DNA from: a virus | Taxonomy: Duplodnaviria > Caudoviricetes | Strand: one strand, 5' to 3' | IMG/VR virus record: IMGVR_UViG_3300042543_000175 | Location: 1 to 56,545 of that record | Length of the DNA stretch: 56,545 bases | Part shown: positions 2,930-47,861 of the stretch, piece by piece | Layout: the number at the start of each line of letters is the position of its first letter | Numbering within the stretch: the first letter of the stretch is position 1 | Translations under genes and position numbers: made by a program | Notes under the pieces: generated by a model | Databases searched by the model: none | The model's input: only the letters and a program-made list of their open reading frames with translations | Told to the model about the DNA's origin: nothing

Positions 2930-4042
2930 TTACGCTCTTTCAAAAATCCTCCTACGCTGCTCATCTGTTATTGTAGATGAAGCAAGACTTGAAGCGGCTG
3001 GCTGCGGCCCGCCAAGTCGCGATCCAATTCCGCTACGATTAGCAAAAAGAGAAGGAGCTTGAGCCAACGGCCCGCGAAAATCAGGAGCCTGTCCGACAGA
3101 TCTTTGCATTGCGCCAAATCCAGTAGATGCCAAAATGGGGGCATTGCGCTCAACTCTTTGAGCCACCGCTTCTTGAGATTGTGGGAACAAACCAACAAGC
3201 GATTGACCGAATCTTCCTTGTGGCGCTGGTGTAGCAGCAAATCTTGGGCCTCGGCTTTCTCCAAATTCCCTCATGGTCTGTGTGTAGTTGCTGGCAATTT
3301 TTTGACCAGCATTTCTCATTTGTGCAAGCAGTGCCTGTTGCTGTTCGGGTGTTCTACTTCCTCCAAATCCAGCATTTGGTTCTGATGCTTTCATTGCTGC
3401 TAAAGAAACCCCAGAAATGTCTTTTGGAGTAAATGTATTTCTTCCTTGGTTTCTAGCCTGTTCGGTTGCTCTAGCAATAGCAGAAATATCTCCAGTTGCT
3501 TTAGCGGCTTGAACCAACGGGTTTTGACTCCAGTCTGAAATTCTAGCAAAACCAGCCATTGGTCGAGATGCTTGTTCTGTGGCACTTGATGGCAAGATTG
3601 GTTGAGTTGTAGGTTGTGCTTGACTCTGAACTGGCATGGATAGGGCTGAAGAAATCTGTTGAGGTGCGGCAGCAGAATAACTAGAAAATGGAGTTTGTGT
3701 TTTTGTTACATCAAACCTTGGAAGGCCAGCCGTTGCAGCAAAAAGTCCATAGTTATACGGTTGACTTGCTGGTTGTGGAGCGGGCTGTGGCTCGTTCCCC
3801 ATTCCAAACATGGAACCAAACACAGGGCTGGTTCCCATAAGTGGCCCCTTATATTGAAGTTGCGAGAGTGATGCCCCAGCAGGCGGAACACTAACACCAG
3901 CCATGGTTGGGGGAGGGGTTCCAACAGCAGGAGTAAATGCCTGCATGATAGACTGTCCAACGCCGCGCAAAAAATCTCCAGTGCGTTGTGATGAAGGAAA
4001 AAGCGGCTTTCCTAAAATGGTTGGATTAAAATCAATGGCCAT
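2930..4042 (-). CDS. Putative internal virion protein, low-complexity A/Q/P/G/S-rich
   Basis: 370-aa ORF tightly packed between neighbours; function inferred from synteny only. Confidence 0.5.
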   Translation of the reverse strand: MAIDFNPTILGKPLFPSSQRTGDFLRGVGQSIMQAFTPAVGTPPPTMAGVSVPPAGASLSQLQYKGPLMGTSPVFGSMFGMGNEPQPAPQPASQPYNYGLFAATAGLPRFDVTKTQTPFSSYSAAAPQQISSALSMPVQSQAQPTTQPILPSSATEQASRPMAGFARISDWSQNPLVQAAKATGDISAIARATEQARNQGRNTFTPKDISGVSLAAMKASEPNAGFGGSRTPEQQQALLAQMRNAGQKIASNYTQTMREFGESRGPRFAATPAPQGRFGQSLVGLFPQSQEAVAQRVERNAPILASTGFGAMQRSVGQAPDFRGPLAQAPSLFANRSGIGSRLGGPQPAASSLASSTITDEQRRRIFERA

Positions 4043-16865: not shown

Positions 16866-16929
16866 TGGTGTGTGTTTTGGTTTAGTTGAAATGGATAGAC
16901 CTAGCGTCTATCAAAATTGTTCAATCTTT

Positions 16930-34491: not shown

Positions 34492-36333
34492 CTACCATTT
34501 TGTCTTCAGAGTCAAGGACTGTTTAAGTTTCTTGAAGCTTTCTTTGTTGAGCCGTTTCTTTTCCTCAATCGCCTCGCTGCCAGCCATAGCTCCGAATATC
34601 TTGCGGGCGACAAACAATCCTACTGCAAAAGAGTCAAATAAGTCAGGAGACTTTCCTATCCGCTTTTTCATGTCGGTTTTAGACTCAATAATAATCTTCC
34701 GAGTCCTACGCACATACTTTCTCTGAGTCATCTCCCATGCCAGATCGGGGGTTATTCCTTTGAGTTGTTCGCATTCTAGAAAGTAGCGAGCGGCAAAGCA
34801 GAGTTCGCTTGCCATATTGTGAAACAATTCTTTGCCAACTTGGGGTTTTCCCGTGACTTCGTTCCTCATGGCGTATTGGGCGCTGACGGGCAAATCGGAT
34901 GCTGCCCCTGCGAAACTCACTGCATGCCAACCCTTTAGGAGTTCTCGTTCTCCGATTGACCAGAAGATACCACCCGCCGAAGCATCCACCCCCATCCATT
35001 GATTTGGTATTCCCAATTTAAGGGATAGGTCGTGGATTTGCTGGATCATCTCGTATTGGAAGTCCTCTTGAGATCCCGCCCTTCGGTTGAGGACATACTG
35101 TTTCTCGACAGCTATCGCCCACTTGCCGCTGATCAGCCTCCCATACTTCATGTGTGTGAAAACAAAGCGGTCTCCTCCTTCGGTGTAGCTAGGGTCAATT
35201 CCAGCTATATCTTTCGGGGTTCCATCCCAGATGGGTTTATCCAATGCCCCGTGACGAGCTAGTAGGATATCTGACACAATCGTGGAATCATCGGCGTCTG
35301 CGGGAGGCCAGAAGCCCCGAAACTTTCTCCAATACTGCGGGTTTAGCTCTCCGAGTTCCTTTTTGGCCAATGCCACATCGTTTGGCTTGGGTAGGAATGG
35401 GTAACGGAGTCCCTTGCCAGCATCGAAGGATTGTTGGTTGGGGTTGTCGTTTTCTGAATCAAACCTGATACAAACCCCCTCAATACCAGCTACTCGTATC
35501 TTCCAATTCGGGGTTTGCTCGTCCACACTCATCCACCCCTTGATGGGTTCGCAGAACTTCCCGTGGGGGTCAAAGATGGAGGATGGGTTGCCAGCGCCCA
35601 CAATATAGAGTTCTTGCGCTCCTTTGAACCCCCACACCGCCTCGTTAATTATAGAAGCCGAACAATCTTGTAACTCATCTGCTATCAACACGATACGACG
35701 ATTTTTCTTACCTTGAAGTCGCTTCTGGGCATCATCCTTGTATTCGTCACCCGCTGCTAGGAGCATGATGGAAGATGCATCACTCACACCTGTTTCGGGG
35801 TCGATAATAGCCCCCTCTTCATCCGAGAGCTTGATGATGTCCATGGACTCAATGAGTCGTCCAGAGGCTAGTCCCATGTTTCGGGCTTCGCGGTACATCT
35901 TGACCAGTGCCGCCCAGATTCGCTGCTTTGCGTCTATTTTTGACGTAGAGACCACAATGGTCATCGTATTGATTGGGTCGCAGAACCAGTTTACAAGAGC
36001 AAACGCCGCCATCCCGTAGGATTTACCAGAGTCCGTTCCGCCAGCGAGACCAGTAACACTTCGGACAAATCGGTTACCCGTAGCCTCGTCCACCTCGTAG
36101 ATTTGGTTGCAGAATGCCTGTGCGCTCAGTTCAGCCCACCTATGCCATTGGAACGTTGGCCAGATAGCAGAGACAATATTGCGATAATGGCGGGCCTTTC
36201 CAAGTCCTCCATCTTCTGGAGTAAGTCCCTGCAAAAAGGCGTCCATCTCAATACGAATTGGAGTAATCGCCTGTCCGTCTTTGGGTAACCACAACCTCCC
36301 GTATTTCTCTATCCCTTGATCAACTGTTGCCAT
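34492..36333 (-). CDS. terL: Terminase large subunit
   Basis: Walker A GGTDSGKS, Walker B LIADE, GAGNP motif, nuclease AGIDP..GGD and SPDLFD. Confidence 0.9.
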   Translation of the reverse strand: MATVDQGIEKYGRLWLPKDGQAITPIRIEMDAFLQGLTPEDGGLGKARHYRNIVSAIWPTFQWHRWAELSAQAFCNQIYEVDEATGNRFVRSVTGLAGGTDSGKSYGMAAFALVNWFCDPINTMTIVVSTSKIDAKQRIWAALVKMYREARNMGLASGRLIESMDIIKLSDEEGAIIDPETGVSDASSIMLLAAGDEYKDDAQKRLQGKKNRRIVLIADELQDCSASIINEAVWGFKGAQELYIVGAGNPSSIFDPHGKFCEPIKGWMSVDEQTPNWKIRVAGIEGVCIRFDSENDNPNQQSFDAGKGLRYPFLPKPNDVALAKKELGELNPQYWRKFRGFWPPADADDSTIVSDILLARHGALDKPIWDGTPKDIAGIDPSYTEGGDRFVFTHMKYGRLISGKWAIAVEKQYVLNRRAGSQEDFQYEMIQQIHDLSLKLGIPNQWMGVDASAGGIFWSIGERELLKGWHAVSFAGAASDLPVSAQYAMRNEVTGKPQVGKELFHNMASELCFAARYFLECEQLKGITPDLAWEMTQRKYVRRTRKIIIESKTDMKKRIGKSPDLFDSFAVGLFVARKIFGAMAGSEAIEEKKRLNKESFKKLKQSLTLKTKW

Positions 36334-37132: not shown

Positions 37133-37724
37133 TCCGAGGTTTTGTTATTCCCGCAAAAGCGATGTTCCGCCACAAGGCTGGTGGGTAAAATGCCCCGTTC
37201 TTGATGAGCCAGTTCGCGGAGGCGATTGGAATGACATGGTCAATAACTGCGAGAAGCTTCTAATCTCAAGGGGTATTACGCCGCCAATAGATTTTGTGTC
37301 ACAAATAGAACATAATCTTTGTGACCGCATGGCTGGTCATGTGCATTGCATTCCATGCACACAAGAGAAACAAACATTAGGATTTGCACAGATTGTTCGA
37401 TGGGTTAAGGCCATGTATCAATTTGCCATCAATGGAAAGTTTGAGCTTGTCTCTCAAGAAGAAGCAGAACGGCGGGCTAAGATTTGCGCGGCCTGTCCAC
37501 ACCAAATTGCAACCTCTGGATGCTGGGGATGTAAGGGCATTGCTGGGATGCTTCCGCATATTGCTGGAGCCAGAAAAACCTCTTACGATCCACAACTAAA
37601 AGCTTGCGGAATCTGCGGTTGCTATTCCGCAATCGCTGTCCATCTTCCATTAAATGTTCAAGGCGGAGAAGGATTGAACTTCCCAGACTTCTGCTGGAAG
37701 TCTAAGCAGGCTCAAAGCGAGTAA
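37125..37724 (+). CDS. Cys-rich hypothetical protein
   Basis: RRAKICAACP...CWGC...CGICGC...CWK. Confidence 0.6.
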   Translation: MSSPRFCYSRKSDVPPQGWWVKCPVLDEPVRGGDWNDMVNNCEKLLISRGITPPIDFVSQIEHNLCDRMAGHVHCIPCTQEKQTLGFAQIVRWVKAMYQFAINGKFELVSQEEAERRAKICAACPHQIATSGCWGCKGIAGMLPHIAGARKTSYDPQLKACGICGCYSAIAVHLPLNVQGGEGLNFPDFCWKSKQAQSE

Positions 37725-39006
37725 TCGCCTTGTTGAAATACATATTGGCTACACCAGTAGGGCCGTCACGATGCTTTCCGACGATAAATTCCATAGTTGG
37801 CATTTGTCCGTGATCTTGTGATTCTTCGCTATGAAGCATGATGACAATATCAGAGTCTTGCTCAATAGCTCCAGAACCCTTTAGGTCTGAAAGGCTTGGG
37901 CGTCCTCCGCGCTTGTCTGGATCGCGATTAAGTTGAGCCAGTACCAAAACTGGTACTTTGAGAGTCTTGGCAAGGTCTTTGATTCCTCCGCTAATCTCCT
38001 CAACTTCGCACACGCGATTGTCCTTACCACGCTTGCTATCACCCTTCACTAACTGTAGGTAGTCAATGATAATGAGATCTAATGGAGTGCGTTGATGTGC
38101 GCGTCGAGCAACGGCCTTGAGATAACCGATAGATTTAGCAGAGCTATCGTCGCAGATAATTTCAGAGCCTTGGATCTCTTGAACGGCCCGTCCTAGAGAT
38201 TGTTTTTGATGCGGGGTTACGCGACCAGAAAGAATATCAGCCGCACCCACACGCGCCCGCGAGCGTATCATGCGCTCCATCAAAGCAACGCTTGTCATTT
38301 CCAATGAGAAGATAAGAACACGCTTCTTCTGATTCAATGCCACGTTCTCCGCAATCTGAAGGGCGCTTGCCGTCTTGCCGACTGCTGGCCTTGCGGCCAA
38401 GACAACCATGTCTCCTCCGCGCAATCCAAACATCAAAAGATCGTCCAATGGTGTGATTCCAGTGCGAATACCAATACATGGTTTTCCAGCAATCGTAGAT
38501 TCGATGTTCTGGGCAGCGCGGTCTAATGCATTGACGATAGAAAGCTTGTTGCCGTCATCAATTTCGTAGTCAGCCCTCATCACTGTGGTTTCCGACCAGT
38601 TCTTGAGTTCTTCGATCTTTAGCTCGCGGTCTCTGGCCTTGTGAACCATATCGTTGGCCAAGTATTCTAACGACCTTCTGTATCGGGCTTCCTCCAGCTT
38701 TGGGTAGTAGCGTTTCCAGTTATTATGGGCCACACACGAAGTTGCAACTTCTGCAATTTTTTGTTCACCGCCAATGATGTCGTATTCATTGGCGGCTTCG
38801 ATCTCCCCCTTGACATTGATAATATCGGCCTGCATCCCCTTGGCGATACAACGCATGATCGCCCGAAAGATGATCTTGTTCTCCTGTAGATAGAAATGAT
38901 CCTCCTTGATTGATAGAAGAATCTCGCGTTGATCCTCTGTCGGCGCATGACAGAGGCAGGAAAGGATTGCGGTTTCAGCCGATGGTTCGTGAATGACTTC
39001 GTGCAT
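37702..39006 (-). CDS. dnaB: Replicative DNA helicase
   Basis: AARPAVGKT, FSLEM, IIDYLQL, LAQLNR, LSDLKGSGAIEQDSD, KHRDGPTG. Confidence 0.97.
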   Translation of the reverse strand: MHEVIHEPSAETAILSCLCHAPTEDQREILLSIKEDHFYLQENKIIFRAIMRCIAKGMQADIINVKGEIEAANEYDIIGGEQKIAEVATSCVAHNNWKRYYPKLEEARYRRSLEYLANDMVHKARDRELKIEELKNWSETTVMRADYEIDDGNKLSIVNALDRAAQNIESTIAGKPCIGIRTGITPLDDLLMFGLRGGDMVVLAARPAVGKTASALQIAENVALNQKKRVLIFSLEMTSVALMERMIRSRARVGAADILSGRVTPHQKQSLGRAVQEIQGSEIICDDSSAKSIGYLKAVARRAHQRTPLDLIIIDYLQLVKGDSKRGKDNRVCEVEEISGGIKDLAKTLKVPVLVLAQLNRDPDKRGGRPSLSDLKGSGAIEQDSDIVIMLHSEESQDHGQMPTMEFIVGKHRDGPTGVANMYFNKAITRFEPA

Positions 39007-40593: not shown

Positions 40594-40965
40594 ATGACAA
40601 GAAAAACTCCACTTCGTTCAAAAACTCCACTGAAGCGCGGCAACTGGTTGCGGGCTGCATCGAAAAAACGCCAAGGTGAATACAATCAGTATGCAAAGGA
40701 GAAAAAGGCGTACCTTGCCCTCCACCCACAGTGTGAACGCTGCAAGAGTAAAAAAGCAACCGATCTCCACCACAAGGCGGGCAGGGTTGGTCAATGGCTG
40801 TGCCGTTACGAATACTTCGCGGCTCTTTGCCGCCAGTGTCACGATTGGCTCCACGCCAACGGCAAGGAGGCCCGCAAAGCTGGATGGATTATCGACGTTC
40901 ATAAGATAGGTCTTGCTGATAATTCTGCATCAGAGGATCCCAGACCCTCCCCTTCGGAGAAGTAA
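40594..40965 (+). CDS. HNH-type nuclease
   Basis: CERC..ATDLHH..GR...ALCRQCHDWLH. Confidence 0.75.
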   Translation: MTRKTPLRSKTPLKRGNWLRAASKKRQGEYNQYAKEKKAYLALHPQCERCKSKKATDLHHKAGRVGQWLCRYEYFAALCRQCHDWLHANGKEARKAGWIIDVHKIGLADNSASEDPRPSPSEK

Positions 40966-41128
40966 GTCTTCGATAGGTATCCACGGCATTCTGCCAACTT
41001 GTTTCAAAAGGCTGGTTCCACTCCTCTTCTGGGGGGAAGTTCCATGGATAAGGTCTTGGATAGGAAACACAACCACTTGCAATAAGTAGTGCTAAAACTA
41101 TCCCTGCTCTTTGAAATCGTAGAACCAT
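40889..41128 (-). CDS. Putative lipoprotein
   Basis: Hydrophobic stretch ending in lipobox IASG-C. Confidence 0.5.
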   Translation of the reverse strand: MVLRFQRAGIVLALLIASGCVSYPRPYPWNFPPEEEWNQPFETSWQNAVDTYRRLTSPKGRVWDPLMQNYQQDLSYERR

Positions 41129-41745
41129 AGTTCCTCCTCGCTTTCGCTGACCCAGCGGCTTCCGACATGCTCGCAACTGAATTCTTGGCTGAAGACTTTC
41201 CAGTCGGGCTTGATGGGAAATTTCTTGGCAATAAACGATCCGCCATCCATCCACAGCACACGATTATTTGGTTGAATGAAATATTGCCCATCGCCCGCAA
41301 ATACATGGCCGCATTTATGCCCAGCGGCCATTTCTCCGTAGCCGCTAGTATATTGAGGGCCGAAACACCAGTCCAAGGTGAACATATACTTAGCCGCCTC
41401 AAAAGATTTGTTCTTGAGCATGATGTTTGCCGCACGATTCTTGCAGTAGTCTAGGATATTGACCGAGCAATAGTAGCTCATAGAGTCCCAGAGTTGTATC
41501 CAGTCTAACGGATAAAACGTCCCTCCAACATCATCAGTGTGGAGATAGTGGATCGGGACTCTGGCGTGTTGGCTTCCGTATTCCGTCATCACGCTAAACA
41601 TCCCGCAACGTTGTGGAATTGACGTATAGGCAAATACCTCGACTAGCTGCCTTTCGCGATTGACGTTGGGTTCCAAATCATAAAAGAATCCCTCGTCTAC
41701 AAAGGCAAAGAATGTCGGTATATTGACGTTGAGATAATTGCTCAT
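41098..41745 (-). CDS. Conserved phage hypothetical protein
   Basis: LQLWD-like IQLWD, YMFTLDW, HKCGH, QPNNR motifs. Confidence 0.7.
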   Translation of the reverse strand: MSNYLNVNIPTFFAFVDEGFFYDLEPNVNRERQLVEVFAYTSIPQRCGMFSVMTEYGSQHARVPIHYLHTDDVGGTFYPLDWIQLWDSMSYYCSVNILDYCKNRAANIMLKNKSFEAAKYMFTLDWCFGPQYTSGYGEMAAGHKCGHVFAGDGQYFIQPNNRVLWMDGGSFIAKKFPIKPDWKVFSQEFSCEHVGSRWVSESEEELWFYDFKEQG

Positions 41746-42023
41746 TTGTCGGCAATCTGTTGAAGGAGTCGCGTCTGACGGCGGAGTTCTTCAAGCTGAT
41801 GGCTTGCCGCAATCTCCGCGCTTAAACGGTCGTTTGATTCTTTTAACTCTGCATTGATCCGCCTCATGGTCTGAAGAAGGGTATCCTTTGGTTGTGGGGA
41901 ATCAACAGATCCGTTGATAACTTGAATACGGCCCGAATCCAAATCAAAGACTGTACCCGAAAAGCTACCGTCTTGTGCCTGAATATTTGTAGCTAGTGTT
42001 AATAACAGTAGTAGTTTTTTCAT
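41742..42023 (-). CDS. Putative secreted protein
   Basis: MKKLLLLLTLA..AQ signal peptide. Confidence 0.6.
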   Translation of the reverse strand: MKKLLLLLTLATNIQAQDGSFSGTVFDLDSGRIQVINGSVDSPQPKDTLLQTMRRINAELKESNDRLSAEIAASHQLEELRRQTRLLQQIADK

Positions 42024-42032
42024 AAAAGAGAT

Positions 42033-42112
42033 TGGAGGCAGGGTGGCGCGGACTTCATTGGCCCCCCGACCTTTGAAGCTTTCGCATTTTCATGCTGGGT
42101 CTCCCCACCTCC
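42033..42112 (-). ncRNA. Candidate 80-nt structured RNA
   Basis: 10-bp closing stem GGAGGUGGGG/CCCUGCCUCC plus A, internal GACC/GGUC stem and GCAU-GAAA-AUGC hairpin. Confidence 0.5.
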
Positions 42113-42117
42113 AAAAG

Positions 42118-42183
42118 TGGTGGAGGAGTCGGCATTGCAGCCGAGTCCGCGCATTAAATGGCGCGTCGAACCTATTCTCCCCC
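42118..42183 (-). ncRNA. Minimal tmRNA-like RNA (tRNA-like domain only, 66 nt)
   Basis: GGGGGAG-AAUAGGUUCGAC-GCGC(CAUUUAAU)GCGC-GGAC-UCGGC(UGCAAU)GCCGA-CUCCUCC-ACCA; G3.U70 wobble, encoded CCA. Confidence 0.75.
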
Positions 42184-42254
42184 TTAAAGTTGTCATGGAG
42201 TAATAGACCACAGCCGCTTCGCGGCGTTCAATATTTTTTCTTTTTTTTCTTTGG

Positions 42255-42752
42255 GGGTATTCGGCGGGCTAAAGCCGTGCGCCCGCCTATATAGCGGCTC
42301 TCTTTCGCTTGAACCCCGAACGCCGCCGTCATTGGATTAATAATTCCTTGAGCTAGATCCGACCGATTGACTACACCTCGCCCCCGCAGGGGCAAAGGCA
42401 TAGTCAAAATTGGATTCTCATTCCTATGAGTGAGTCCTCCGCTTTATTCCACAGATTGCGATCTAGGCTCCGAAGCCGCTAGTAGACCTTCAAACAACCG
42501 CAATCGACCTCCGAGGGTATTATCCCTCGCGCTTACTCTGTTGGCTGACACAATTTTTGTATATTTTATGTGTCAGGCTTGAAAGAAATACTTATATCTT
42601 TTTCTTTCAAAAACCAGAGATTCCCACGCCGCAATGTGTTCAGGCTATGGGACGGATGGCTGATCCGTAAGTGCGGCGGTTTTATCCTTGCATACCTCGT
42701 TACGGGGTTTAGTGGCGTATGTCGCGCCCACTTTGCGCTTGTCCTTCCAGAC
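42255..42752 (-). ncRNA. Candidate ~500-nt highly structured RNA
   Basis: At least 8 inverted repeats in an ORF-poor region downstream of a consensus-like promoter. Confidence 0.5.
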
Positions 42753-42758
42753 ATGCGG

Positions 42759-42787
42759 AGGCTACGACACGTTCAAAATTAAGTCAA
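42759..42787 (-). promoter_or_regulatory. sigma70-type promoter
   Basis: TTGACT-17-TAGCCT. Confidence 0.6.
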
Positions 42788-42789
42788 GA

Positions 42790-42868
42790 AAAGAAAAAGG
42801 GTGCGGCTCCGAAGCGAGGTCTGGAAGACAAGCGCAACATTTTTGGAACCGCACCCAGATGCAAGGAT
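42790..42868 (-). ncRNA. Candidate antisense sRNA with built-in terminator
   Basis: 12-bp stem GGGUGCGGUUCC/GGAGCCGCACCC followed by UUUUUCUUUU; loop complementary to 42733-42752 transcript. Confidence 0.6.
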
Positions 42869-42874
42869 CGACGC

Positions 42875-42903
42875 AGAGTAACGCCAGTGTTGTAGAGTGT
42901 CAA
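42875..42903 (-). promoter_or_regulatory. sigma70-type promoter
   Basis: TTGACA-17-TACTCT. Confidence 0.65.
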
Positions 42904-42923
42904 CAAGAGAGTAATATGTTTCT

Positions 42924-43214
42924 ATGGATAAAGAATCCTATAGATCCTACTTGAGAACGCCTTATTGGAAGGAAGTGAGCCGTCTTGTGAAAAAACGTTT
43001 TGGCTGGAGATGTGGGGTTTGCAACAGTCCCCTAGAACTCCAAGCCCACCACCGCACCTACGAACACCGAGGGGACGAACTCAACCATCTGGATGATCTG
43101 ATCTGCCTCTGCAAGCTCTGCCACAAATTGTTCCATAAAGAACAGAGGAAAGCCCGTAAACCACAGAGGGCGCAGAAACGAAAGTCTCCACGCCCCCGAA
43201 ATATTAATATTTGA
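42924..43214 (+). CDS. HNH endonuclease
   Basis: YLRTPYW...CGVC..LQAHHRTY...DLICLCKLCH. Confidence 0.85.
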   Translation: MDKESYRSYLRTPYWKEVSRLVKKRFGWRCGVCNSPLELQAHHRTYEHRGDELNHLDDLICLCKLCHKLFHKEQRKARKPQRAQKRKSPRPRNINI

Positions 43215-43241
43215 CGGCAAGTAAAGCCCAGCTACTGTGTA

Positions 43242-43571
43242 ATGTCAATACATAATTATATGATCAACACATCTACTCTACCTACTGAAATTCAGGAAAA
43301 CCCCGAAATCACCATTGGCGAACTGGCCGTAAAACACGGATCAAGCTACCATGCTATGGCTTCGGCGTTGAAGCGGACTGGTATTCGGGCCAAGCGCAAG
43401 AAGACTACCAAGAGGCGAATGTCCAATGGGGGGCGGGCTTTCAAAATCCTTGGCTATCTCATGGCCAACCCTGAAATGAACTTCACTGCTGTTGCCGAAC
43501 AATTCAATTGTACCCGCGAGTATGTGAGCCAGATTGAGGCCATTGCCCGTGAGGAGGGGATCATTAAATGA
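43242..43571 (+). CDS. Tandem HTH DNA-binding protein
   Basis: ITIGELAVKHG and NFTAVAEQFNCTREYVSQI. Confidence 0.65.
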   Translation: MSIHNYMINTSTLPTEIQENPEITIGELAVKHGSSYHAMASALKRTGIRAKRKKTTKRRMSNGGRAFKILGYLMANPEMNFTAVAEQFNCTREYVSQIEAIAREEGIIK

Positions 43572-47624: not shown

Positions 47625-47861
47625 TTGCCACGGCCACATTTTGGCTTTTTGCGCTTTATGGAGTCTACGCCTACTTCTGGAAATAAACTGGATAACTGGA
47701 TCAAGGCCCGATTTGCCGACCAGAAAGAAGTCCTTAACGTCTTGCAGGAATACGGGGTTATCTCAGACAACTGCGTTAACGTGGAAGATGTGGGCAACGA
47801 CAAGGAGGCTATGATATGGCTGGCAAAAAACTTTGAACATTTCAAGCGCCATGGTGTCTAA
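47625..47861 (+). CDS. Hypothetical protein (start probably 47658)
   Basis: EVLNVLQEYGVISDNCV. Confidence 0.5.
   Translation: MPRPHFGFLRFMESTPTSGNKLDNWIKARFADQKEVLNVLQEYGVISDNCVNVEDVGNDKEAMIWLAKNFEHFKRHGV

Follow-up and report, generated by a model that had tools for sequence, protein, structure and literature searches.

A large structured RNA outside Rfam, with a candidate small RNA partner, in a lineage of uncultured lake phages

Two large RNAs of phages and prophages, GOLLD and ROOL, lie near transfer RNA (tRNA) islands and were recently shown to build RNA-only cages, as reported in PMC12286853. According to the same paper, GOLLD is a large multi-helix non-coding RNA (ncRNA) that often sits near tRNA genes and in some cases was recovered from lake metagenomes, and ROOL (rumen-originating, ornate, large) is a highly structured RNA with no known protein partner (PMC12286853). 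In this paper we describe an RNA of a virus (Duplodnaviria; Caudoviricetes) recorded in IMG/VR as IMGVR_UViG_3300042543_000175, a linear record of 56,545 bases with a completeness estimate of 78%, whose whole length is called the window in the following. This RNA (hereafter the large RNA; positions 42255-42752) is very probably a structured RNA of the minus strand and is the founding example of an RNA family outside Rfam; GOLLD and ROOL are its closest analogues, and it is a member of neither. To our knowledge few large bacterial or phage ncRNAs lacking an assigned function are on record, and a further family would enlarge this small set, one that combines some ten helices with a 24-nt loop of invariant sequence, a site of expansion and an RNA partner that co-varies with it. 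Its compact size of ~415 nt suits structural work, the paired small RNA offers an experimental handle, and a mimic of transfer-messenger RNA (tmRNA) next door suggests a connection to translation or ribosome rescue that can be tested.

The likeness to GOLLD concerns the setting: the large RNA is phage-borne, comes from lake water and lies beside tRNA-like RNAs, with tRNA genes nearby in relatives, i.e. in the kind of location described for GOLLD. It differs from GOLLD in that no Rfam GOLLD match was obtained in the window or in 20 related loci at any of the thresholds tried, in its length of ~415-500 nt, compared with more than 800 nt in many GOLLD members (PMC12286853), and in having a partner small RNA with co-varying complementarity. 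With regard to ROOL, there is again no Rfam match, habitat and phage lineage differ, and no pseudoknots are established for the large RNA. In size, ROOL (~580 nt) belongs to a comparable class. We know of no such paired small RNA for either GOLLD or ROOL.

The CI RNA of phage P4 and the c4 RNA of phages P1 and P7 are same-strand antisense regulators, and Rfam includes a C4 model. Our locus resembles these systems in possessing a small RNA upstream of, and on the same strand as, its presumptive target, with co-varying complementarity that falls into several specificity types, ahead of replication genes. By contrast, what the small RNA would target at our locus is not a visible ribosome-binding site but the 5' end of a structured RNA of 415 nt, no Rfam match was obtained, and no integrase was found in a protein scan that covered 34 distinct open reading frames (ORFs), a subset of those in this 78%-complete record. 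A further comparison is offered by ColE1, in which RNA I controls RNA II: there, as here, a structured RNA of ~500 nt has a 5' part bound, or in our case probably bound, by a small regulatory RNA. Unlike in ColE1, the small RNA is encoded in tandem and not antisense, the large RNA is dispensable in 29 of 54 relatives, and no origin features were seen.

A first-pass annotation of the window, made from the letters alone, had proposed for 42255-42752 a large structured RNA (a replication primer or origin RNA, or a new class of phage ncRNA) or else a structured single-stranded DNA origin, and had named ROOL, GOLLD, HEARO and group I introns as families to compare. None of these four matches the window, either at the Rfam gathering score or at E <=10. 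At the gathering score Rfam 15 returned nothing in the window and nothing in eight related loci; at E <=10 over 41900-43050 it returned five sub-threshold matches (GibS, PyrR204, two tmRNA models and Glutamine-II), all of them well short of the respective cut-offs and mostly outside 42255-42752, and at E <=5 in 12 more loci only a tRNA, an L20-leader match of 21 bits and a tmRNA-model match of 16 bits. The large RNA was also considered, and rejected, as a tmRNA: ARAGORN called neither a tRNA nor a tmRNA in the window, nor did it call any tmRNA in 18 related loci, and the weak tmRNA matches lie outside the large RNA. No paper describing the RNA was found by full-text literature searches. PMC10690425 is a 2023 catalogue of ~8,500 short candidate structured RNAs from IMG/VR with a mean length of 67 nt, and may list single hairpins of the large RNA in its supplements.

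The large RNA lies in a structured, ORF-poor gap (42024-42923) between a leftward and a rightward arm of genes. This gap is wider than the interval first delimited, and helices extend beyond 42255-42752 (I2, I3 and I9 of an inverted-repeat search). Eight inverted repeats had been listed in the first-pass annotation, at 42263-42287, 42367-42407, 42454-42505, 42512-42529, 42545-42576, 42579-42610, 42627-42678 and 42652-42668; all are present, and each can be folded as a hairpin on both strands (I1, I5 and I11 were also recovered by the repeat search). Comparison with relatives nevertheless divides them: the repeats at 42545-42576 and 42579-42610 are lineage-specific, and the pairings 42627-42678 and 42652-42668 are unconserved and were discarded, with 83% and 67% of cells paired and zero compensatory change. 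The predicted folding of the 498 nt is stronger than that of all 100 dinucleotide shuffles on either strand, which answers the folding check suggested in the first-pass annotation: -168.4 kcal/mol versus -143.2 +/- 6.4 (z -3.96) on the plus strand, and -174.1 kcal/mol versus -148.6 +/- 6.5 (z -3.92) on the minus strand.

The z-scores of the whole region are equal on both strands, and the strand is indicated by the pairs themselves. Across all modelled helices, read on the minus strand, 270 cells are G.U and 54 are A.C, next to 1872 Watson-Crick and 114 other cells. The hairpin at 42367-42407 (P8) contains three G.U pairs when read on the minus strand, which become A.C on the plus strand, and its energy is -29.0 kcal/mol on the minus strand versus -20.1 on the plus strand. 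Similarly, one of our covariance models (R3) scores the window with 101.1 bits on the minus strand and 26.5 bits on the plus strand. Together, the excess of G.U, the P8 energies and the R3 score indicate that it is the minus strand which folds, i.e. in the direction of the DnaB operon. The proposal of a large structured RNA is therefore retained, as a structured RNA of a class outside Rfam 15, with its strand corrected to minus.

Relatives of the locus were collected in two ways. The 215-aa protein encoded downstream of the RNA (p215; 41098-41745, minus strand) served as bait; viral contigs contain 211 relatives of it, and we retrieved 80 loci. A 320-aa protein used likewise gave two pattern matches, of which none was confirmed. 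In addition, a 24-nt motif common to all versions of the RNA was used to scan viral contigs, metagenomes and species genomes, which yielded 42, 58 and 20 stretches, respectively. Among 88 distinct motif-bearing stretches from viral and metagenome contigs, nhmmer recognised 63 as true homologues, while 24 are chance matches and one more (L136, 9.5 bits) was also treated as chance. Full length is reached by 47 homologues, which are 48-100% identical to the window. No homologue was found in 185,579 genomes (one for each species), where the 20 motif stretches score <=17.7 bits in nhmmer and match in the motif only. Cultured phages likewise gave no match to the gap by blastn, nor to the terminase protein, and 18 metagenome DNA runs labelled as lake water contain at least 73% of the gap's sampled words.

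Three covariance models (R1-R3) were built and all homologues realigned to them. In total 34 of 63 pairs show compensatory changes, and in none of the three domains is the observed covariation score reached by any of 500 shuffles. Domain A (P1-P3; 42735-42620; 34 distinct rows) comprises 20 pairs with 93.6% of cells paired and 14 compensatory pairs, and scores 0.434 versus 0.186 when shuffled and 0.04-0.10 in slid controls. Domain B (P5, P6, P6a and P7; 42536-42414; 40 distinct rows) has 25 pairs, 92.2% paired and 12 compensatory (0.223 versus 0.125 shuffled), and domain C (P8; 42421-42329; 39 distinct rows) has 18 pairs, 92.6% paired and 8 compensatory (0.204 versus 0.139 shuffled). A plain MAFFT alignment evaluated with RNAalifold gave compensatory changes in 23 of 46 pairs.

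Ten helices (P1-P10) can be drawn for the large RNA, of which P1-P3 and P5-P8 are kept by compensatory changes. The body extends over 498 nt in the window (42255-42752) and over ~415 nt without the insertion in P4, as in most relatives. The 5' end presumably lies at or near G42752, and the last conserved hairpin stops at 42263. The first hairpin, P1 (42712-42731; 42731-42725 with 42717-42712), has five of six pairs compensatory and 89.6% of cells paired, and its loop contains a conserved CAUA. The best case is P2 (42665-42705; 42705-42700 with 42670-42665), with all six pairs compensatory and 96.1% of cells paired. P2 encloses the invariant 24-nt loop (42697-42674; AGGUAUGCAAGGAUAAAACCGCCG), which is identical in 43 aligned sequences that elsewhere are as little as 48% identical; the pairs drawn inside this loop show zero covariation. 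The 28 loci that were found through the protein alone and match model R1 carry the loop or a near variant of it. A mini-ORF within the loop (AUG CAA GGA UAA) was ruled out, as GGAUCAA variants lose the stop codon. P3 (42623-42651; 42651-42643 with 42630-42623) has three of eight pairs compensatory and 94.9% paired.

Between P3 and P5 lies the variable hairpin P4 (42536-42619), a peripheral expansion site of 15-120 nt that was folded for each version separately. Its 21 distinct versions among 43 sequences differ in sequence, and 20 of them fold with a stem of at least five pairs, the exception being the 15-nt version of L046 with only two. The closing stem is CUCUG (42619-42615) with CAGAG (42540-42536) in the window, and CCAGA/UCUGG, CCAAA/UUUGG, CCAAG/CUUGG or UCAUC/GAUGA elsewhere. 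In the window the site is filled by an insertion of ~74 nt (42614-42541) that consists of the A/U-rich hairpins 42610-42579 and 42576-42545 and that is present in only four of the 43 distinct sequences (the window, L166, L002 and L005). An unrelated expansion of ~100 nt, with a long stem and two branch hairpins (-43 to -58 kcal/mol), was observed in L108, L030, L126, L137 and L176.

Downstream of P4 follow P5 (42512-42529; 42529-42524 with 42517-42512; four of six pairs compensatory, 91.6% paired) and P6 (42454-42505; 42505-42496 with 42463-42454; six of ten compensatory, 96.2% paired). P6 encloses the near-invariant element CUCGGAGCC (P6a, 42477-42466), which is 83.6% paired and shows no covariation. 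P7 (42417-42434; 42434-42429 with 42422-42417) has two of five pairs compensatory and 91.9% paired, and the 18-bp hairpin P8 with its three G.U pairs has 8 of 18 compensatory and 92.6% paired. The 3' tail (42263-42326) is variable and comprises P9 (42326-42322 with 42298-42294), taken from a column scan, and the G+C-rich P10 (42287-42281 with 42269-42263), which reads GGCGGGC/GCCCGCC or GGCGGGG/CCCCGCC in most alignment rows and is followed by no U-run. This tail differs among clades, and is absent or different in L043, L048, L053 and L083. As a side observation (42506-42511 versus 42395-42400 and 42374-42379, minus strand), GGAGGU at the junction of P5 and P6 could replace the 3' arm of P8 as the pairing partner of the 5' arm; both co-vary with that 5' arm, and an alternative conformation is thus possible. 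The corresponding long-range stack, in which GGAGGU mirrors P8's own 3' arm, was not adopted.

Upstream of the large RNA, on the same strand, lies a terminator-like hairpin that we regard as a candidate small RNA (42786-42856, minus strand; arms 42856-42842 and 42813-42799, a 28-nt loop and a U-run at 42798-42786). Its 15 pairs, followed by UUUUUCUUUUCUU, are invariant and 100% paired in 18 sequences. Part of its loop (42837-42819) is complementary to the first 20 nt of the large RNA (42752-42733), which the hairpin precedes by ~70 nt. In 18 distinct sequences, 7 of 14 in-register pairs of the helices between loop and target are compensatory, with 92-100% of cells paired, and cognate duplexes average -30.7 kcal/mol versus -22.3 for non-cognate ones. 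The distal segment falls into at least four co-varying specificity types, and the complementarity always starts at a conserved GUC, which is where the RNA would be expected to start if TTGACT and TAGCCT upstream are read as its promoter. Small RNA and target are hence encoded on the same strand and their complementarity is kept by co-variation, as in same-strand antisense systems, and we consider it probable that the two RNAs functionally pair.

The promoter-like region of the large RNA (42749-42787, minus strand) consists of TTGACT (42787-42782), a 17-nt spacer and TAGCCT (42764-42759), as judged from sequence and conservation, and it overlaps TTGAAC (42776-42771) and GTCT (42752-42749). The latter combination recurs: a motif search for TTGAAC-N16-19-GTCT found five copies in the window versus 0.61 expected (42205-42231, 42749-42776 and 16897-16924 on the minus strand; 47833-47859 and 3509-3536 on the plus strand), and three of them lie just upstream of transcription units on the correct strand. 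The motif may represent a phage-specific promoter class; its halves resemble the -35 AAC and -10 GTC elements of extracytoplasmic function (ECF)-type promoters. The copy at 42205-42231, with an A-rich tract before it, forms the promoter-like site of the leftward operon and is retained in relatives without the large RNA. A perfect hairpin, GCCGC-GAA-GCGGC (42209-42225, minus strand), was noticed in the spacer of this second site, with GCCCC...GGGGC and other paired forms in relatives.

Distribution of the large RNA is mosaic within one lineage of uncultured lake phages, in which it is an accessory element. Among 54 relatives whose sequence reaches at least 1500 nt beyond the 215-aa gene on its upstream side, 25 carry it (23 by the motif; L013 and L017 by model R1), and it is dispensable in the other 29, while the downstream promoter-like motif and genes are retained; relatives lacking the RNA exist with a flanking protein 90-93% identical. 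For example, L010 lacks the large RNA, and there the second promoter-like site and, next to it, the small (81-nt) closed-stem RNA stand directly beside an unrelated gene. The gap as a whole is modular in blastn comparisons (42000-42124, 42186-42536 and 42619-42950), with 42537-42618 confined to the closest relatives. The site of the RNA is always the divergence point of the rightward HTH/HNH and the leftward DnaB-structural operons: an HTH homologue diverges upstream in 42 of 46 RNA-bearing loci, and in 33 of 38 the 215-aa gene follows downstream with the same orientation as the RNA. Between phages that share 91-93% identity in the 215-aa protein, RNA alleles can be only 50-61% identical, and such divergence in near-identical backbones indicates that the module is either exchanged or fast-evolving. 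Patchy presence and allele swapping in near-identical backbones suggest an accessory function under diversifying pressure.

Some data from RNA libraries bear on expression. In four of four libraries, from three studies, contigs of relatives cover the RNA region, and one such contig of 679 nt spans 42159-42689 with a short (13-nt) form of P4. The four runs contain only 4-9% of the sampled words, and all are contigs; gaps in cover and depths carry no weight, and we regard these contigs as a weak hint of expression.

On balance we lean, by a small degree, towards a stand-alone RNA that acts in trans rather than a leader. The large RNA would be transcribed from its own promoter (TTGACT-17-TAGCCT, overlapping the recurring TTGAAC...GTCT), released on its 3' side through processing at a tRNA-like RNA downstream and protected by hairpin P10. 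It might then act as a folded scaffold or decoy that offers its invariant loop to a conserved partner, and the upstream small RNA, by binding the 5' end, could set its stability, folding or read-through. That such a scaffold or decoy role is tied to translation or tRNA biology is a speculative suggestion. Equally tentative is the idea of a four-part, RNA-only module (the regulatory small RNA, the large RNA, a mimic of the tmRNA acceptor and a closed-stem RNA) with which lake phages might take over or blunt a host RNA process such as ribosome rescue or a tRNA-targeting defence. If this were true, the large RNA would join GOLLD and ROOL as the third class of ornate RNA in phages, and would be the first of them to possess an RNA regulator of its own, in several co-varying specificities.

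Several points weigh against the stand-alone reading and the structure on which it builds. There is no terminator between the large RNA and the next promoter-like site and operon, which would allow a leader role, and the ends of the large RNA are deduced from sequence. A sigma-70 consensus scan found no promoters in 41900-43100, and a consensus scan for terminators found none in the same interval, where the upstream hairpin was missed because its loop exceeds 8 nt; the promoter and terminator assignments are therefore our own readings of the sequence. The contigs from RNA libraries extend over the flanking genes with comparable depth and may derive in part from DNA, and they give neither ends nor strand. 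Regarding the structure, the three model-fitted alignments are biased towards the structure used in fitting, 'further pair types' are not above shuffles (17, 254 and 91 of 500), and the sequences form only about six clades, i.e. few independent events. Covariation is slight or absent in P6a, P9, P10 and the pairs inside the invariant loop. Since both collection scans required most of the 24-nt motif, the invariance of that loop is in part a product of the search, and concatenated model alignments yielded neither a robust long-range helix nor a pseudoknot, the stacks obtained being weak or ambiguous and none being adopted.

The main competitor is that the large RNA is a cis-acting 5' leader of the leftward DnaB-structural operon, in which the attached RNA would control elongation, processing or translation and the small RNA would serve as a switch; processive antitermination, as by the put RNAs of phage HK022, is one form that this could take. 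RNA and operon indeed share strand and direction and are not separated by a terminator, both are preceded by the same promoter-like motif, and the target of the small RNA lies at the extreme 5' end of the large RNA. Yet the second promoter-like site and its A-rich tract stand between the RNA and the genes and are retained where the RNA is lacking, the operon does not need the RNA, given that only 25 of 54 relatives carry it, and two tRNA-like or closed-stem RNAs intervene before the first ORF. Moreover, ~415 nt and ten helices are far more than in the antitermination leaders known to us, and we consider a leader possible but rather unlikely. A replication primer or origin RNA, with the small RNA controlling copy number or timing by analogy with ColE1, is a still weaker candidate. 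It would be suited by a long structured RNA that lies upstream of a helicase operon and has a small RNA binding to its 5' end, as would the lack of a polymerase or separate primase among the ORFs scanned. Such an element should be essential, whereas relatives with a flanking protein 90-93% identical do without it; there are no iterons, the repeat search having given one 8-nt direct repeat in two copies; the sole A/T-rich stretch is the lineage-specific insertion of hairpin P4; and alleles that differ by up to 50% in backbones with p215 91% identical are more in keeping with an exchangeable module than with an origin that must match its initiator. The origin or primer proposed in the first-pass annotation therefore appears improbable.

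Still less probable is a structured DNA element (a single-stranded origin, or a packaging or recombination site) that is not an RNA at all. The hairpins form on both strands with equal z-scores, and G.T pairs could favour one DNA strand, so that strand asymmetry alone does not suffice against the single-stranded DNA origin of the first-pass annotation. This origin, however, is a poor match for a locus with promoter-like motifs, a partner small RNA and tRNA-like RNAs, all on the very strand that shows the 5:1 excess of G.U over A.C; the invariant long internal loops beside co-varying stems are a pattern typical of folded RNA, and the presence of relatives in RNA libraries argues weakly in the same direction. 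Finally, one or more small protein-coding genes might be hidden in the region, since ORFs of 30-88 aa occur in the gap on both strands and many homologues keep a stop-free stretch of ~70 aa opposite domain A. No ORF of 100 aa or more lies within 41745-43242, and none of the short ORFs is conserved: the longest stop-free stretch, with a median of 72 aa over 43 homologues, lies in no constant strand or frame, and indels include 1, 2, 6 and 11 nt, with those of 1, 2 and 11 nt inside the region. The 24-nt motif is invariant at all codon positions and the stems that flank it change by paired substitutions. Coding can be practically dismissed, and the earlier impression that no convincing ORF is present is borne out, with no conserved ORF found across homologues.

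The stand-alone RNA favoured here has further RNA neighbours. On the minus strand the order from 5' to 3' is the small-RNA hairpin, the promoter-like region, the large RNA, the second TTGAAC...GTCT, a 66-nt RNA, an 81-nt RNA and a 93-aa ORF. The 66-nt RNA (42118-42183, minus strand) is a neighbour and not part of the large RNA, and by its fold it is tRNA-like and resembles that part of tmRNA which mimics a tRNA. Its acceptor stem is 7 bp long with G.U as third pair; it further shows a GGUUCGAC stretch, a hairpin like a T-arm and an ACCA end, and the tag-coding part is replaced by a short hairpin. It was called neither by ARAGORN nor by Rfam, and weak matches to tmRNA models at 42089-42147 are below the cut-offs. 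The 81-nt closed-stem RNA (42033-42113, minus strand; -34.3 kcal/mol) possesses an 11-bp stem (UGGAGG.../...CCUCCA), stops 9 nt short of the start codon of the 93-aa ORF, and is conserved in relatives whether or not they carry the large RNA (e.g. L010, 5635-5716).

Nine loci (L022, L019, L015, L014, L032, L041, L033, L012 and L013) carry a different structured module of ~330 nt instead of the 66-nt RNA, located between the second promoter-like site and the closed-stem RNA and with obvious paired substitutions. On the RNA strand it contains two alanine codons followed by two stop codons, and ARAGORN called no tmRNA there. tRNA genes lie a few hundred bases upstream of the unit of small and large RNA, on the same strand, in L022 (4165-4240) and L030 (4052-4126), both tRNA-Met, and in L087 (16-87).

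With respect to the genes around the gap, the left ~42 kb of the window reads leftwards and includes a tail protein, the large terminase (34492-36333) and a DnaB-like helicase (37702-39006, minus strand). The DnaB noticed in the first-pass annotation is thus present, and its remark that no primase or polymerase was seen agrees with the partial scan described above, which found neither a polymerase nor a separate primase among the 34 distinct ORFs of the 78%-complete record. From 42924 onwards the rightward arm encodes, among others, an HNH protein of 96 aa, an HTH protein of 109 aa and a dCMP deaminase. The RNA island has a small HNH-type protein on either side (42924-43214 and 40594-40965, both on the plus strand), and the 96-aa HNH gene occurs in 27 of 46 RNA-bearing loci, which marks it as a separate mobile piece. 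The 215-aa protein matches no Pfam family and is 30-36% identical (maximum 36.5%) to genes annotated as PurM, phosphoribosylaminoimidazole synthetase or ferredoxin in cyanophages, pelagiphages and Flavobacterium phages.

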